This document shows, in pieces, positions 39,542-44,976 of a stretch of 64,000 nt of DNA. Source of the stretch: Escherichia coli (GTDB taxonomy: Bacteria; Pseudomonadota; Gammaproteobacteria; Enterobacterales; Enterobacteriaceae). Where the stretch lies: assembly GCF_044324875.1 (NCBI RefSeq), contig NZ_CP172185.1, one strand, 5' to 3'. The notes beneath the pieces were generated by a model. That model saw only the letters and a program-made list of their open reading frames with translations. It made no database searches and was not told where the DNA came from. A program made the translations under genes and the position numbers. Position 1 is the stretch's first letter. Every line of letters begins with the position of its first letter.

Positions 39542-39904
39542 TTACTTTTGCTGCACGAAATTACGATAAGCAGCCACCACCTGCAGAAAATCCTCAACGC
39601 CGCATAGCGACAGGCTTTCTTCGTCGTAGTAGTTCATCCCCTCTTCCATTTCATCGCCAGCGAATTCCAGTTGATTGGCGCGAACCATCACTTCTTCGCC
39701 GTCCATCCATAGCGTGTACTCATGCCCTGCCCGCTGCCAGGAACGTTCGCTACCTTTGAGCGTGCGCGCGGCGTCTTCTACTTCATCAAGCAAGGCCAGG
39801 TTTTCTTTCACCTCTTCGTTAAACCAGTGCCCGACCACTTCATGCCCCATGGACATACGCACCTTTACCACTCCGGTAATATCACGCAGAAATTCGTAAT
39901 CCAT
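39542..39904 (-). CDS. yacL: UPF0231 family protein YacL
   Basis: 120 aa from [15 protein letters not shown]; acidic. Confidence 0.85.
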
Positions 39905-40013
39905 AGTGTGTTCCTCTGCTCCCGGCAATGCGCCATTACTGCATTGCACCTTAGGTTTAATTATCACAGCACTATGCAAGATTAAAAGGTGGAAAAGAAT
40001 AAGGAATAAAAAT

Positions 40014-40045
40014 AAACCCCCTTTCCTTGAGCAGAAAGGGGGTTT
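40014..40045 (-). terminator. acnB intrinsic terminator
   Basis: Perfect 12-bp stem aaaccccctttc / gaaagggggttt; U-rich tail on the minus transcript. Confidence 0.75.
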
Positions 40046-40100
40046 AAAGAAGTGTTACTTGTCAGGTATTCAGGAGAACACCTGAGCTATTTTCAGGCTG

Positions 40101-42698
40101 TTACACCGCAGTCTGGAAAATCACCCCGTCCGCTTTTTCGGTGTACTGAGAAAGCTGGTTGAAGTTCAGGTAACGGTAAGTATCAACGGCAGTTTTATCC
40201 ACCTGTGCCACGTAGGTCTGGTACTCTTCCGGCGTCGGTAGTTTGCCAATCAGCGCCGCAACAGCAGCCAGTTCCGCAGAAGCCAGGAAGACATTCGCGC
40301 CAGTACCCAGACGGTTCGGGAAGTTACGGGTAGAGGTGGAAACCACCGTCGCACCGTCTGCTACACGCGCCTGGTTACCCATACACAGGGAACAGCCAGG
40401 GATCTCGATACGCGCACCGCTCTTACCGAAGACGCTGTAGTAGCCTTCTTCGGTCAACTGCGCGGCGTCCATACGGGTTGGCGGTGCCACCCACAGGCGG
40501 GTCGGCAACTGGCCTTTATGCGCATCCAGCAGTTTACCCGCAGCACGGAAGTGACCGATGTTGGTCATGCAGGAACCGATAAACACTTCGTCGATCTTCT
40601 CACCCTGTACCGCAGACAGCGGACGTGCGTCATCCGGATCGTTCGGAGCACACAGGATTGGCTCTTTAATATCCGCCAGATCGATGTCGATCACTGCCGC
40701 GTATTCCGCATCTGCATCGGCTTCCAGCAGCTCAGGATTCGCCAGCCATTTTTCCATGCCCTGAATACGACGTTCCAGGGTACGACGATCGCCGTAACCT
40801 TCCGCGATCATCCACTTCAGCAGGACGATGTTGGAGTTCAGGTATTCGATGATCGGTTCTTTGTTCAGCTTGATAGTACAACCAGCGGCAGAACGCTCGG
40901 CGGACGCATCGGTCAGCTCAAAGGCCTGCTCAACTTTCAGATCCGGCAGACCTTCAATTTCCAGAATGCGACCAGAGAAGATGTTTTTCTTGCCTTTCTT
41001 CTCAACGGTCAGCAGACCTTGTTTGATCGCATACAGCGGAATAGCGTGTACCAGATCGCGCAGGGTGATGCCCGGCTGCATTTTGCCTTTGAAGCGCACC
41101 AGAACGGATTCCGGCATATCCAGCGGCATTACGCCTGTTGCGGCTGCAAATGCCACCAGACCAGAACCCGCCGGGAAAGAAATGCCGATCGGGAAACGGG
41201 TATGGGAGTCACCACCGGTACCGACGGTATCCGGCAGCAGCATACGGTTCAGCCAGGAGTGGATTACGCCGTCACCCGGACGCAGCGACACACCACCACG
41301 GTTCATAATGAAGTCCGGCAGCGTGTGGTGCGTGTTCACGTCAACTGGCTTCGGATACGCCGCGGTGTGGCAGAAAGACTGCATCACCAGGTCAGCCGAG
41401 AAGCCCAGGCACGCCAGGTCTTTCAGTTCATCACGGGTCATCGGGCCGGTGGTGTCCTGGGAACCTACAGAAGTCATTTTCGGTTCGCAGTACGCGCCCG
41501 GACGAATGCCTTTCACGCCGCAGGCACGACCTACCATTTTCTGCGCCAGCGAGAAGCCGCGGTCGCTCTCAGCGACATCTTTCGCCTGACGGAACACATC
41601 GCTGTGCGGCAGACCAAGTGCTTCACGCGCTTTGGTGGTCAGGCCACGCCCGATAATCAGCGGAATACGACCACCGGCACGCACTTCATCAATCAGCACG
41701 TCGGTTTTCAGTTCGAAGGTCGCCAGCAGTTCGCCGGTTTCGTGGTTACGCACTTCACCTTTGTACGGGTAAACGTCAATTACGTCACCCATGTTCAGGT
41801 TAGAGACGTCCACTTCAATTGGCAGTGCACCCGCATCTTCCATCGTGTTAAAGAAGATGGGTGCAATTTTACCGCCGAGGCACAAACCACCGCCGCGTTT
41901 GTTCGGCACATGTGGAATATCATCGCCCATAAACCACAGAACGGAGTTCGTGGCGGATTTACGCGATGAACCCGTACCCACAACGTCACCGACGTACGCC
42001 AGCGGGAAACCTTTCTGTTGCAGAGCTTCAATCTGTTTGATCGGACCAACAACACCAGGCTGATCTGGCTCAATACCTTCACGGGCGTTTTTCAGCATCG
42101 CCAGCGCGTGCAGTGGGATATCCGGGCGTGACCACGCATCCGGTGCCGGAGAAAGGTCATCGGTGTTGGTTTCGCCTGTGACTTTGAAGACGGTAACGGT
42201 CAGTTTTTCAGCCAGTGCCGGGCGATTCAGGAACCATTCGGCATCCGCCCAGGACTGCATTACCTGCTTCGCATATTCGTTGCCTGCTTTGGCTTTCTCT
42301 TCTACGTCATAGAAGTTATCGAACATCAGCAGCGTGTGAGAAAGTGCTTTGGCAGCGATCGGTGCCAGTTTGGCATCATCCAGCGCGTCGATCAGCGGAT
42401 GAATGTTGTAACCACCCTGCATAGTGCCCAGCAGTTCGATGGCTTTTTCCGGAGTCAGCAGAGGGGATTTGGCTTCGCCTTTAGCAATAGCAGCCAGGAA
42501 GCCTGCTTTTACATAGGCGGCTTCATCGACGCCTGGGGGAACACGGTTGGTTAACAGATCTAACAGGAATTCTTCTTCGCCCGCGGGCGGGTTTTTCAGC
42601 AGCTCTACAAGCGCGGCCATTTGGTTTGCATCCAGGGGTTTGGGCGCAATCCCCTCAGCGGCACGCTCAGCTACGTGCTTACGGTATTCTTCTAGCAC
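40101..42698 (-). CDS. acnB: aconitate hydratase B
   Basis: 865 aa from a GTG start at (M)[16 protein letters not shown] with GGAGAA Shine-Dalgarno; ORF-track start is an upstream extension. Confidence 0.95.
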
Positions 42699-43052
42699 GA
42701 CGGTTCTCCTCGCTCTCATTGTCATAGTGCGGCAGGCGATTCTCTTCACGCTCCTGTGAGACAGCAGTTTGTAGGGTAAATGCCCAGTACCGCAACGGGC
42801 AGAATAGCAGGATTTTGATGATGTGTTAATCCGTTTACAAAAAAGCAACATAAAAAAGTGGCTGAATCGTTAAGGATGGTCTAGAGATTGTTTCCCTCCG
42901 TAAAAACTTCGTTAATTCGCATGGTTATAATCACCTTTCTCAACAAATCCCAAGATTAGTCAAAATTTAAACTACCGCCTCTTTATACTCGGATTCACAG
43001 CACCTGCGGGTGGCAGTTCGCCGACCATTGCGATTTCCTTGAGATCCGAATT

Positions 43053-44906
43053 ATGAAAATGACTTTGCCGTTTAAACCCCATGTGCTGGCGCTCATTTGC
43101 AGTGCCGGGCTTTGTGCCGCCTCTGCCGGGCTATATATAAAAAGTCGCACAGTGGAAGCGCCTGTGGAAGCGCAATCGACACAACAGACTGCGCCTGACA
43201 TCACCGCGGTTACGCTTCCTGCAACGGTTTCCGCGCCTCCCGTAACACCCGCCGTCGTCAAATCCGCATTCAACACTGCACAAATAGATCAATGGGTTGC
43301 GCCTGTCGCGCTGTACCCCGACGCTCTGCTTTCACAAGTGTTAATGGCATCAACCTATCCGGCAAACGTTGCGCAAGCAGTACAATGGTCGCACGATAAC
43401 CCACTTAAACAAGGCGATACTGCTATTCAGGCGGTATCTGACCAGCCGTGGGACGCCAGCGTTAAATCACTGGTGGCCTTTCCACAATTGATGGCATTGA
43501 TGGGCGAGAACCCGCAATGGGTGCAAAACCTGGGCGATGCTTTTCTGGCGCAGCCGCAGGACGTGATGGACTCGGTACAGCGATTGCGGCAACTGGCGCA
43601 ACAAACCGGCTCGCTGAAGTCATCAACTGAACAAAAGATCATCACGACAACGAAAAAAGTCGTACCGGTAAATCAGCCCGCCAACGCCCCTGCCACACAA
43701 TCAAATACCGTTTCTACGTCCAGCCCCGTCGTCGCAGAACCTGCACCGACCGTAATAACCATTGAGCCCGCCAATCCTGATGTGGTCTATATTCCCAACT
43801 ACAACCCAACCGTGGTTTACGGGAACTGGGCCAATACTGCGTATCCGCCGGTTTATCTGCCACCACCAGCCGGAGAACCGTTTGTTGACAGCTTTGTGCG
43901 CGGATTCGGCTATAGCATGGGCGTTGCTACCACGTACGCGCTATTCAGCAGCATCGACTGGGATGACGACGATCATGACCATCATCATCATGACGATGAT
44001 GATTATCATCACCACGATGGCGGTCATCGTGACGGTAATGACTGGCAACACAACGGCGACAACATCAATATCGACGTCAATAATTTCAACCGTATCACCG
44101 GTGAGCATCTTACTGATAAGAATATGGCATGGCGGCACAATCCAAACTACCGTGATGGTGTGCCCTATCATGATCAGGATATGGCAAAGCGGTTTCATCA
44201 AACCGATGTCAACGGCGGCATGAGCGCCACGCAGTTACCTGCTCCAACACGCGACAGCCAGCGTCAGGCGGCAGCAAGTCAGTTTCAGCAACGAACACAC
44301 GCCGCCCCCGTCATTACGCGAGATACCCAACGTCAGGCAGCGGCACAGCGGTTTAATGAAGCTGAACACTATGGGAGCTATGACGACTTCCGCGACTTCA
44401 GCCGTCGCCAGCCACTGACCCAGCAACAAAAGGACGCCGCTCGTCAGCGTTATCAGTCGGCCTCTCCTGAGCAGCGCCAGGCAGTCCGCGAGAAAATGCA
44501 GACTAACCCGCAGATCCAGCAGCGAAGAGAGGCAGCGCGTGAGCGTATTCAGTCCGCCTCGCCTGAGCAGCGCCAGGCGGTTCGCGAGAAAATGCAGACT
44601 AACCCGCAGAACCAGCAGCGAAAAGAGGCAGCTCGTGAGCGTATTCAGTCCGCATCACCAGAGCAGCGCCAGGTGTTTAAGGAAAAAGTACAGCAGCGCC
44701 CACTGAACCAACAGCAACGTGATAACGCCCGCCAGCGTATACAATCGGCATCACCTGAACAACGTCAGGTTTTTCGGGAGAAAGTTCAGGAGAGCCGCCC
44801 ACAACGTCTAAACGACAGTAACCATACTGTCAGGCTGAATAACGAGCAACGGTCAGCAGTACGCGAACGTCTCTCTGAGCGCGGAGCAAGGCGACTGGAA
44901 AGGTAA
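43053..44906 (+). CDS. yacH: DUF3300-type exported protein YacH
   Basis: 617 aa, signal peptide, His/Asp-rich tract and four 32-aa tandem repeats. Confidence 0.85.
   Translation: MKMTLPFKPHVLALICSAGLCAASAGLYIKSRTVEAPVEAQSTQQTAPDITAVTLPATVSAPPVTPAVVKSAFNTAQIDQWVAPVALYPDALLSQVLMASTYPANVAQAVQWSHDNPLKQGDTAIQAVSDQPWDASVKSLVAFPQLMALMGENPQWVQNLGDAFLAQPQDVMDSVQRLRQLAQQTGSLKSSTEQKIITTTKKVVPVNQPANAPATQSNTVSTSSPVVAEPAPTVITIEPANPDVVYIPNYNPTVVYGNWANTAYPPVYLPPPAGEPFVDSFVRGFGYSMGVATTYALFSSIDWDDDDHDHHHHDDDDYHHHDGGHRDGNDWQHNGDNINIDVNNFNRITGEHLTDKNMAWRHNPNYRDGVPYHDQDMAKRFHQTDVNGGMSATQLPAPTRDSQRQAAASQFQQRTHAAPVITRDTQRQAAAQRFNEAEHYGSYDDFRDFSRRQPLTQQQKDAARQRYQSASPEQRQAVREKMQTNPQIQQRREAARERIQSASPEQRQAVREKMQTNPQNQQRKEAARERIQSASPEQRQVFKEKVQQRPLNQQQRDNARQRIQSASPEQRQVFREKVQESRPQRLNDSNHTVRLNNEQRSAVRERLSERGARRLER
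44420..44810 (+). repeat. four ~96-bp in-frame tandem repeats in yacH
   Basis: Protein repeats QSASPEQRQAVREKMQTNPQ x4 with matching nucleotide periodicity; preceded by a His/Asp-rich tract near 43966-44040. Confidence 0.8.
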
Positions 44907-44916
44907 ATTACAGACG

Positions 44917-44948
44917 TAAAAAAAGCGGCGTGGTTAGCCGCTTTTTTA
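44917..44948. terminator. bidirectional terminator between yacH and lpd
   Basis: A-run, agcggc-gtggtta-gccgct hairpin, T-run. Confidence 0.7.
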
Positions 44949-44976
44949 ATTGCCAGATGTCCCGGCAAACGAAGAA

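Follow-up and report, generated by a model that had tools for sequence, protein, structure and literature searches.

yacH, a DUF3300 gene of Escherichia coli, carries two in-frame coding repeats of unstable length, a His/Asp-rich tract in a loop and an array of 32-residue units, within a protein that is apparently Sec-exported to the periplasm or envelope and is still under purifying selection. We hold this reading as a whole, in which the loop most likely binds metals or protons, with slightly better than even confidence. The gene occupies 43053..44906 on the plus strand of the window, the 64,000-nucleotide stretch of DNA that was analysed, and encodes 617 residues plus a stop codon (open reading frame list; Pfam PF11737).

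YacH within the DUF3300 family

The Pfam profile PF11737 spans aa 75-333 of YacH (E 4.6e-77, 259 bits against a cut-off of 25), with profile positions 2-227 of 227 aligned and the score above the gathering score, and RefSeq annotates the locus as 'yacH: DUF3300 domain-containing protein' in 5,425 of 5,426 complete E. coli genomes. Members of the family, which matched 9,486 cluster representatives at E <= 0.001, share with YacH an ordered layout of signal, helical core, V-Y-V-P-x-Y-N-P segment, DW turn, I-D-I-D strand, W-x-H-x-P-x-x-R-x-G-V-x-Y motif and Arg-rich tail. YacH differs in that its turn has grown from 4 to 34 residues and become His/Asp-rich, in that its C-terminal tail takes the form of 32-residue hairpin repeats (only in Escherichia among the loci examined), and in that it stands without the DUF2950 partner with which DUF3300 genes of Proteobacteria are usually paired.

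The N-terminal segment (43053..43127, +; aa 1-25) is signal-like, with a basic start, VLALICSAGLCAASAGLYI and a possible A-S-A cleavage motif. The sole strongly hydrophobic segment of the protein, aa 9-29, is followed by this A-S-A motif, and in all of YacH a single Kyte-Doolittle window of 19 residues exceeds 1.6 (2.04 at aa 11). Several homologues carry lipobox or lipoprotein-type N-terminal signals, and published descriptions of DUF3300 call the family secreted. From the hydrophobic segment and the signals of homologues we infer export and signal cleavage, which supports the description of YacH as an exported protein in an earlier note on this DNA. The segment at aa 275-303 (FVRGFGYSMGVATTYALFSSIDW) was considered as a membrane helix, which would place tract and repeats in the cytoplasm, and was rejected for E. 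coli, its best 19-residue Kyte-Doolittle mean being 0.78 and the AlphaFold2 model giving short strands there. The same region is more hydrophobic in some distant homologues.

Most of the nearly invariant columns of the family alignment fall within an all-helical core (43275..43604, +; aa 75-184; pLDDT 95-98, dN/dS 0.03-0.04). It is followed by a dimorphic linker region (43619..43918, +; core aa 186-232), for which the yacH allele alignment resolves two deeply diverged E. coli sequence classes, with 87% nucleotide identity to K-12 versus 97-100% for the flanking genes and a dS of ~0.8. Beyond the loop, the family strand motif [IV][DN][IV][DN][IV][DN] reads INIDVN (44064..44081, +; aa 338-343), with a strand predicted at aa 338-341 (AlphaFold2, pLDDT ~80-95), and the W-x-H-x-P-x-x-R-x-G-V-x-Y motif reads WRHNPNYRDGVPY (44130..44168, +; aa 360-372; pLDDT ~95), a consensus that recurs among the aligned representatives. 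The model as a whole is moderately confident (mean pLDDT 74).

The "unknown function" given to YacH also held, in that the literature searched assigns yacH no biochemical function and neither sequence nor fold searches returned a solved relative. A PDB sequence search gave only weak matches, to His/FLAG-type tags on recombinant receptors and, in one case, by chance; an NCBIfam search gave none; Pfam on the C-terminal part alone gave sub-threshold hits (DUF3106, RskA_N); and profile and fold comparisons gave no significant match to DUF3106 or to the periplasmic helical-hairpin chaperones Spy/CpxP/ZraP (LTXXQ).

A His/Asp-rich loop in place of a short turn

The His/Asp tract that had been reported in yacH, DDDDHDHHHHDDDDYHHHDGGH, is present exactly at aa 304-325; its position needs a small correction, as it begins at 43962, 4 nt before the reported start of 43966, and runs to 44027 (+). 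It is built of GAT/GAC/CAT/CAC codons, including (CAT)4 and (GAT)3, and 19 of its 22 residues are Asp or His, a composition for which chance predicts ~7e-14 occurrences in the six frames of the whole window. The tract is predicted to be disordered (AlphaFold2, pLDDT <50). The whole expanded loop (43962..44063, +; aa 304-337) is bounded by the 'DW' conserved in the family and by the INIDVN strand, and has a net charge of -10.

Aligning the window protein with 103 DUF3300 representatives (104 sequences) places the origin of the loop at a turn. The segment from DW to the strand has a median of 4 residues (e.g., GHND, GRGD), as against 34 in YacH; most DUF3300 proteins keep the 4-residue turn, and His/Asp-rich loops of 17-38 residues occur only in Enterobacterales, where we found them in E. 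albertii, Klebsiella, Kluyvera, Enterobacter, Raoultella, Franconibacter, Buttiauxella, Scandinavium and Rahnella. Between genera the composition of the loop is kept while its sequence is not conserved. Histidine makes up 17% of the loop in homologues, compared with 1.9% protein-wide, and at least one His stands in the turn or loop segment of 59 of the 104 aligned sequences.

The 32-residue repeat array

The four tandem repeats of the earlier note are four in-register units of 32 aa (96 bp) at 44415-44798. Calling them "near-identical" was too strong, because the units are only 66-83% identical in DNA (63-80 of 96 nt pairwise, and 20-25 of 32 residues). The string quoted for the repeat, QSASPEQRQAVREKMQTNPQ, is confined to units 1 and 2; in the protein register, units 3 and 4 read QSASPEQRQVF[K/R]EKVQ, and QSASPEQRQ is common to all four. 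By Tandem Repeats Finder, the 96-bp period extends over 44412-44715 (3.2 copies, 81% matches), and matching improves to 87% in a core of 2.6 copies (44420-44673). A 48-bp half-period suggests that each unit consists of two related half-units of ~16 aa.

Unit 1 (44415..44510, +; aa 455-486; LTQQQKDAARQRYQSASPEQRQAVREKMQTNP) is predicted to form a helix-turn-helix, with helices at 457-469 and 472-483. Unit 2 (44511..44606, +; aa 487-518; predicted helices 486-500 and 504-515) matches unit 1 at 80 of 96 nt with a 24-nt exact shared run, and is the unit that the common 3-copy alleles lack and that a 5-copy allele has in duplicate. Unit 3 (44607..44702, +; aa 519-550; predicted helices 518-533 and 536-547) matches unit 2 at 76 of 96 nt, and unit 4 (44703..44798, +; aa 551-582) is the most diverged, matching the others at 63-67 of 96 nt; units 3 and 4 are fused in the L008/L009 alleles. 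The model has each unit as a helical hairpin, with paired helices predicted at block-mean pLDDT mostly 73-90. The Gln/Arg-rich array carries a net charge of ~+13, or ~+17 together with the tail. A partial repeat-like helix, NNEQRSAVRERLSERGARRLER, follows at the C-terminus (44838..44903, +) and is conserved across genera as the end of the protein. Upstream of the array stands an older, degenerate duplication (RDSQRQAAA... / RDTQRQAAA...; 44250..44345, +; aa 400-431; two helices predicted), from which an extra 45-aa tandem duplication starts in some E. coli alleles of 662 aa.

Length polymorphism among E. coli genomes

Neither tract has a fixed length across E. coli genomes, which bears out the view of the locus as slippage-prone. 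The comparison of copy number across strains that had been proposed as a check gave 2-5 units, and the lack of variation across genomes that would have told against the earlier note was not seen. These counts come from systematic samples totalling 160 rows of a clinically biased collection, rather than from all 5,426 complete genomes, because unit junctions are not unique. Four units were found in 32/60 and three in 27/60 genomes of one sample; in another, 22/40 genomes had four units, 16/40 had three and 1/40 had two. Overall, four units occur in ~54% and three in ~43% of sampled genomes, with two and five also seen, and at least four different types of unit fusion or duplication exist.

The His/Asp tract departed from the reference length in 11 of 60 systematically sampled genomes (~18%), by -39, -6, +6 or +24 bp, with one copy disrupted, and 120 E. 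coli/Shigella proteins held 18 distinct tract variants. At the codon level, its alleles have gained or lost short stretches of GAY/CAY codons by exact tandem duplication or deletion (+6 CATGAC, +24, -39, -3/-3). Among complete E. coli genomes, length changes of both tracts are almost always in frame. One E. coli allele is frameshifted within the repeats, and yacH is disrupted in ~2 of 100 sampled E. coli genomes, one of them by an inversion and not by slippage. An 8-bp deletion in the same tract is reported to inactivate yacH in Salmonella Typhimurium lineages (PMC3391293, PMC10048834). Instability per generation may be low, because the common yacH alleles largely follow lineages. A literature search for tandem repeats in yacH returned only unrelated papers.

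Selection on yacH and overlapping reading frames

Against K-12, dN/dS is 0.18 for the whole of yacH and 0.13-0.19 for the repeats, and the flanking genes acnB and lpdA show zero non-synonymous changes; yacH is under purifying selection, repeats included. Antisense open reading frames over the tract had been dismissed as artefacts, and selection agrees: computed against other Escherichia alleles, dN/dS is 1.1-5.4 in the two overlapping frames versus 0.03-0.13 in the yacH frame. The frames at 43762..44223 (+) and 43941..44201 (-) were rejected as genes on this measure, and in other alleles stop codons interrupt the plus-strand frame.

Genomic context and regulation

A DUF2950 gene lies directly downstream of the DUF3300 gene in 11 of 11 non-Escherichia loci examined, Klebsiella among those that keep the partner, and this order is reported to be universal in rhizobia (PMC4653623). 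Between yacH and lpdA, DUF2950 is absent both in the window and in E. albertii, and blastn found no DUF2950 DNA in 5,426 E. coli genomes. The partner is lost in Escherichia. Downstream of yacH, a hairpin read directly from the sequence, AGCGGC-N7-GCCGCT between an A-run and a T-run (44924..44947), is likely a bidirectional terminator between the convergent yacH and lpdA, judging from its sequence and placement; a consensus terminator scan did not call it. Published work connects yacH with CpxR, Rob and cationic peptides (PMC9600279, PMC7537768, PMC6737244), and the searched literature held no metal-related regulation or phenotype of yacH.

How the loop and the array may have arisen and what they may do

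We propose that in Enterobacterales a 4-residue turn, often G-H-N/D-D, expanded to 17-38 residues of disordered, acidic loop encoded by GAY/CAY codons, and that the fold would tolerate changes in its length because the loop projects from a turn. Replication slippage, together with short tandem duplication and deletion, would keep altering the tract in multiples of 3, and rare out-of-frame events or rearrangements would inactivate yacH. In the array, the model suggests that helices begin at S-P-E-Q and N-P-Q-N cap motifs and that the units together make up a Gln/Arg-rich array; where units share exact runs of 13-24 nt, slipped mispairing or unequal recombination could take place, so that whole hairpins would be gained or lost in frame (2 to 5 copies) and the C-terminal helical array would become longer or shorter. 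Any effect of repeat or loop length on phenotype we infer.

For the loop, the most likely putative activity would be to bind divalent transition metals or protons at several sites with low affinity, in the manner of the disordered His-rich loop of the periplasmic protein ZnuA, to which YacH is unrelated. The ZnuA loop is disordered in crystals and required for extra zinc sites (PMC8900738), and it shares with the YacH loop a flexible, His/acidic character, residence in a periplasmic protein of Enterobacteriaceae (for YacH, by its apparent export) and variation in sequence and length between species. The ZnuA loop supplies additional zinc sites, whereas YacH is without a known primary metal site, transporter link or Zur regulation, and searches for homology to cluster A-I solute-binding proteins gave no PDB match beyond tagged constructs and no fold match. 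The "metal-binding-like" character that had been ascribed to the tract is a resemblance in composition, and binding is plausible by analogy with ZnuA.

The closest parallel for the array is tolA (Zhou, Michiels and Aertsen 2012, PMC3477136), an E. coli envelope protein gene whose repeats change in frame by recombination. Like tolA, yacH has head-to-tail, multiple-of-3 units within its coding sequence, apparently also that of an envelope protein, with copy number varying among natural E. coli strains, helical repeats, and whole units gained or lost. The tolA units are 15-mers in 2-39 copies, whereas those of yacH are 96 bp long, 66-83% identical and present in 2-5 copies; for tolA, contraction frequency has been measured and RecA dependence and copy-number phenotypes demonstrated.

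The main competitor, which we regard as possible but doubtful, is neutral low-complexity growth, in which loop and array are tolerated without being active themselves, the GAY/CAY codons are kept by slippage bias, and length is noise in a dispensable protein whose DUF2950 partner Escherichia has lost. The His/Asp composition could be maintained by slippage itself and not by selection. Composition is all that is conserved of the loop between genera. The 11 paired loci outside Escherichia and the missing partner within it fit such growth, as do the pseudogenization of yacH in several S. Typhimurium strains (PMC3391293) and in the ~2% of sampled E. coli genomes, and the viability of knock-outs, which beat wild type in some assays (PMC9600279, PMC7376861). 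It sits poorly, however, with clear purifying selection that includes the repeats, with in-frame alleles far outnumbering frameshifts, with a His/Asp-rich loop kept in ten genera of two families without drift in composition, and with the His enrichment of 4-residue turns even in distant homologues. An on/off switch by frameshift, that is, a contingency (phase-variation) locus, is highly improbable: frameshifts are known, from the Salmonella tract deletion and the one E. coli repeat allele, but all sampled tract length alleles are multiples of 3, the few disruptions include an inversion, and yacH has no homopolymer or repeat unit of non-multiple-of-3 length. With units of 3 nt and 96 nt, slippage preserves the frame, and we rejected phase variation since all units are frame-preserving.

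Charge offers another account, an unlikely one in our judgement, in which the acidic loop and the basic array and tail would interact with charged envelope components or cationic antimicrobial peptides and repeat number would tune this within the Cpx response. The segment-wise distribution of charge in YacH is in line with it. So are the reported CpxR regulation and protamine repression of yacH and the better survival of protamine by a deletion mutant (PMC9600279), induction in UPEC by a cathelicidin-derived peptide (PMC6737244), a GTAAA-N6-GTTAA element just upstream of a TATAAT box (42900-42931), and the tolA precedent of repeat number tuning stress tolerance. The yacH phenotypes are nevertheless modest, come from single studies and are not tied to the repeats, and within one paper yacH is regulated in different directions under different conditions. 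A bolder combination, which we rate as a long shot, is that Escherichia, having lost DUF2950, rebuilt the YacH C-terminus as an array of basic helical hairpins, variable in copy number, that together with the acidic loop would make a self-contained periplasmic device for sensing or buffering metals, pH or cationic peptides, with 3- versus 4-copy and loop alleles tuning envelope-stress tolerance as TolA repeats do.

Implications

The yacH repeats are ordinary intragenic repeat polymorphism in an already annotated gene, a case of routine coding-repeat instability that leaves current understanding unchanged. In practice the locus is a cheap strain marker, and short-read assemblies and variant callers may give spurious or "high-impact" indels within it. 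YacH is among the uncharacterised proteins of E. coli, and DUF3300 is a very large family without known function or solved structure; for both, a His/Asp tract seated on a 4-residue turn, hairpin arrays of three and four copies at roughly equal frequency, and the loss of DUF2950 provide entry points for experiments.

Coding status and divergence of yacH

In the window, yacH occupies 43053-44906 on the + strand (617 codons) between acnB (- strand) and the convergent lpdA (- strand), and residues 75-333 of its product match Pfam DUF3300 (E 4.6e-77), of which YacH is a member. An NCBIfam search with the product matched no model, and RefSeq places "yacH: DUF3300 domain-containing protein" at this position in 5,425 of 5,426 complete E. 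coli genomes. Against K-12, dN/dS is 0.18 for yacH, 0.04 for its helical core and 0.19 for its repeats, with zero non-synonymous changes in the flanking acnB and lpdA. Between E. coli lineages yacH is far more diverged than the genes beside it, matching K-12 at 94.5% of nucleotides where the flanks match at 97-100%. Its linker (43619-43918; 87% nucleotide identity to K-12, dS ~0.8 versus ~0.1-0.2 elsewhere in the gene) falls into two allele classes within E. coli, with divergence centred on residues ~186-232, past the helical core and ahead of the strand region. The pattern resembles that of an ancient dimorphism or of imported DNA. The yacL-acnB spacer region (39732-40318) is 84-87% identical to K-12 with 47 gap columns, the surrounding genes being 95-99% identical.

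Two further ORFs cross the His/Asp tract in other frames (43762..44223, + strand; 43941..44201, - strand), and the view of the earlier note that antisense ORFs over the tract are artefacts holds. Compared with other Escherichia alleles their dN/dS is 1.1-5.4, where the yacH frame has 0.03-0.13, and stop codons interrupt the + strand ORF in other alleles; we rejected both as genes, and their open frames follow from the scarcity of stop codons in GAY/CAY sequence.

A His/Asp tract grown from a short turn

The tract itself, which the earlier note had seen, is DDDDHDHHHHDDDDYHHHDGGH (residues 304-325; 43962-44027, + strand). It is built of GAT, GAC, CAT and CAC codons with (CAT)4 and (GAT)3 runs, and 19 of its 22 residues are Asp or His (chance expectation ~7e-14 for the whole window). 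Sampling genomes systematically, in even steps down the entire ranking of matching genomes, we found the reference tract length in 49 of 60, the others being +6 bp (6 genomes), -6 (1), +24 (1), -39 (2) and disrupted (1). At codon level the length alleles are exact tandem events: CATGAC is duplicated in the +6 allele and GATCATGACCATCATCATCATGAC in the +24 allele, one CAT and one GAT are lost in another, and a 39-bp deletion removes the second half of the tract to leave DDDDHDHHH. Among the best-scoring 120 E. coli/Shigella proteins there are 18 distinct tract strings, with a central His run of 3 to 7.

An exhaustive HMMER search for DUF3300 homologues returned 9,486 cluster representatives (E <= 0.001), 103 long ones of which were aligned with the window protein. 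Across these 104 sequences, the segment between a nearly invariant Trp (W303) and the [IV][DN][IV][DN][IV][DN] strand has a median of 4 residues (e.g., GHND, GRGD, GGGD), and in the homologues His makes up 17% of it versus 1.9% protein-wide; the same segment is 34 residues long in E. coli YacH. Long His/Asp loops occur mainly in Enterobacterales (E. albertii, Klebsiella, Kluyvera, Enterobacter, Raoultella, Franconibacter, Buttiauxella, Scandinavium, Rahnella), with loops of 17-19 residues in a few metagenomic representatives (e.g., P0130, P0174), and across genera their composition is kept while sequence and length vary. The tract is therefore a turn enlarged by codon slippage, its His/Asp character long retained.

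Repeat units and their copy-number alleles

The four 32-aa repeats lie at 44415-44798 (+ strand, protein register), each unit carrying QSASPEQRQ; Tandem Repeats Finder reports a 96-bp period at 44412-44715 (3.2 copies, 81% matches) and, more weakly, a 48-bp half-period. Units share 66-83% of their DNA and 20-25 of 32 residues, so that "near-identical", as the earlier note described them, applies, if at all, to units 1 and 2 (83% at nucleotide level), and the peptide it quoted is present in those two and missing from units 3 and 4.

Copy number is largely dimorphic: in 60 systematically sampled genomes 32 had four units, 27 three and 1 another arrangement, and in a sample of 40 there were 22 with four, 16 with three, 1 with two and 1 divergent allele (78% nucleotide identity). 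At least four routes led to these alleles, with units 1/2 fused (loci L003, L004), units 3/4 fused (L008, L009), units 1/3 fused so that two copies remain (L005), and unit 2 duplicated to give five copies (protein P0005, 648 aa). In the 662-aa E. coli proteins P0009-P0011, AAPVITRDTQRQAAAQRFNEAEHYGSYDDFHDFSRRQPLTQQQKD is duplicated in tandem (45 aa, 135 bp) shortly before the array begins, and contigs as long as 4.85 Mb carry this variant. Adjacent units have exact stretches of 24 and 20 nt in common, and units 1 and 3 one of 13 nt; stretches of this length suffice for slipped mispairing or unequal recombination. With both tract and repeats varying between genomes, the invariance that the earlier note had named as counting against its reading is not what is found.

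Among the loci examined, the 32-aa unit was seen only in Escherichia; other genera have two or three ~19-aa units of the type NPTAQQQQRRxNAKSH at the matching position, and the divergent allele L010, from Escherichia, has a nearly identical pair of units peculiar to it. This lineage pattern suggests that units have been homogenised or re-duplicated within lineages.

A lost partner gene

The order acnB-yacH-lpdA is kept across Enterobacteriaceae, and between genera AcnB is 92-99% and LpdA 96-99% identical, YacH just 47-59%. A DUF2950 gene directly follows the DUF3300 gene at every non-Escherichia locus examined (ten Enterobacteriaceae, one Bordetella-labelled MAG and two unrelated metagenome contigs; the Klebsiella gene matches Pfam DUF2950 at E 3e-80), and some of these loci have in addition a gene for a small exported protein in the yacH-lpdA interval (comparison of L018-L028). 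The E. coli yacH locus departs from this usual pairing: DUF2950 is absent there and in E. albertii, matches nothing in the window, and has no similar DNA by sensitive blastn across 5,426 E. coli genomes. YacH of Escherichia is thus an orphan, missing its usual DUF2950 partner; E. albertii retains the small gene alone in its yacH-lpdA interval.

The yacH-lpdA spacer of the window is 70 bp (44907-44976). Here a hairpin, AGCGGC-N7-GCCGCT (44924-44947), preceded by an A-run and followed by a T-run between the convergent genes, looks like a bidirectional terminator; a terminator scan did not call it. In the E. coli strains GPEC128-620 and DA61218 (L008, 3259-3499, and L009), where the 3' end of yacH also differs through its unit 3/4 fusion, the spacer is instead 242 bp long and includes REP-like palindromic DNA (GCCGGATGCGGCGTAAACGCCTTATCCGACCTACAAAA, - strand).

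Predicted structure and possible function

AlphaFold2 run on the family alignment (mean pLDDT 74) predicts a helical core (residues 75-184, pLDDT >95), short strands around the V-Y-I-P-N-Y-N-P segment, and a confident INIDVN strand and WRHNPNYRDGVPY motif, with the tract disordered (pLDDT <50 over most of residues 310-334). Paired helices are predicted for each unit (457-469/472-483, 486-500/504-515, 518-533/536-547, 553-564/568-610), with block-mean pLDDT mostly 73-90 in the first three units and lower in the fourth, so each 32-aa unit is modelled as one helical hairpin with helices starting at SPEQ and NPQN. The sole strongly hydrophobic segment (residues 9-29) has two lysines before it and A-S-A after it, several homologues have lipoprotein-type signals at the N-terminus, and signal peptides have been noted in rhizobial DUF3300 and DUF2950 proteins (PMC4653623); we infer that YacH, both repeats included, probably lies outside the cytoplasm.

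Earlier studies tie yacH to envelope stress: its expression is CpxR-dependent and repressed by protamine, which a deletion mutant survives better (PMC9600279), it is strongly down-regulated in a rob mutant (PMC7537768), and a cathelicidin-derived peptide induces it (PMC6737244). Upstream, within 42900-42931, GTAAA-N6-GTTAA resembles CpxR half-sites at a spacing of 6 rather than 5 nt, with a perfect TATAAT just downstream (42926-42931) and no good -35 hexamer; a promoter scan did not call it, and as a candidate CpxR-like element it would fit the reported CpxR dependence.

The genetics of both repeats (slippage, unequal recombination, in-frame tolerance) are well supported, and their biochemistry is read from composition. 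On our preferred reading the loop, called metal-binding-like in the earlier note, would be a flexible, many-sited binder of divalent metal ions or protons, acting in the manner of the disordered His-rich loop of ZnuA, on which additional zinc sites depend (PMC8900738); the array would be a basic helical extension lengthened or shortened by whole hairpins. YacH is not itself a member of the ZnuA, Spy/CpxP/ZraP or DUF3106 families. The main rival holds both to be low-complexity expansions, tolerated because the protein is dispensable and no longer has its partner gene. Also possible is a charge-based role in handling cationic peptides, the net charge being +13 for the array, another +4 for the tail and -10 for the tract. 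Phase variation of yacH is not supported, and disrupted alleles are rare: one has a frameshift inside the repeats (L007), and in the ETEC isolate L3_E36 (L014, NZ_LR882997.1, 3620-3790) a ~160-bp inversion, with breakpoints in GATCATGAT-like sequence, begins directly after the tract and makes yacH an annotated pseudogene. In S. Typhimurium UK-1, 14028s, SL1344 and D23580 an 8-bp deletion within the homologous tract makes yacH a pseudogene (PMC3391293), and a milk isolate has the same deletion (PMC10048834).

The variable in-frame repeats of tolA are the same kind of genetic phenomenon, with copy-number effects and RecA dependence shown for tolA itself, and ~30 MG1655 genes are said to have in-frame repeats (PMC3477136). 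The observation behind the earlier note is real and its interpretation largely right, metal binding excepted, which is a possibility. In yacH, an already annotated gene, the coding repeats show a polymorphism of an ordinary kind. What is added here is that the loop originated at a turn, that the units are modelled as hairpins, that copy number is dimorphic (three versus four) and that the partner gene was lost; though unsurprising, this is of use to YacH researchers.
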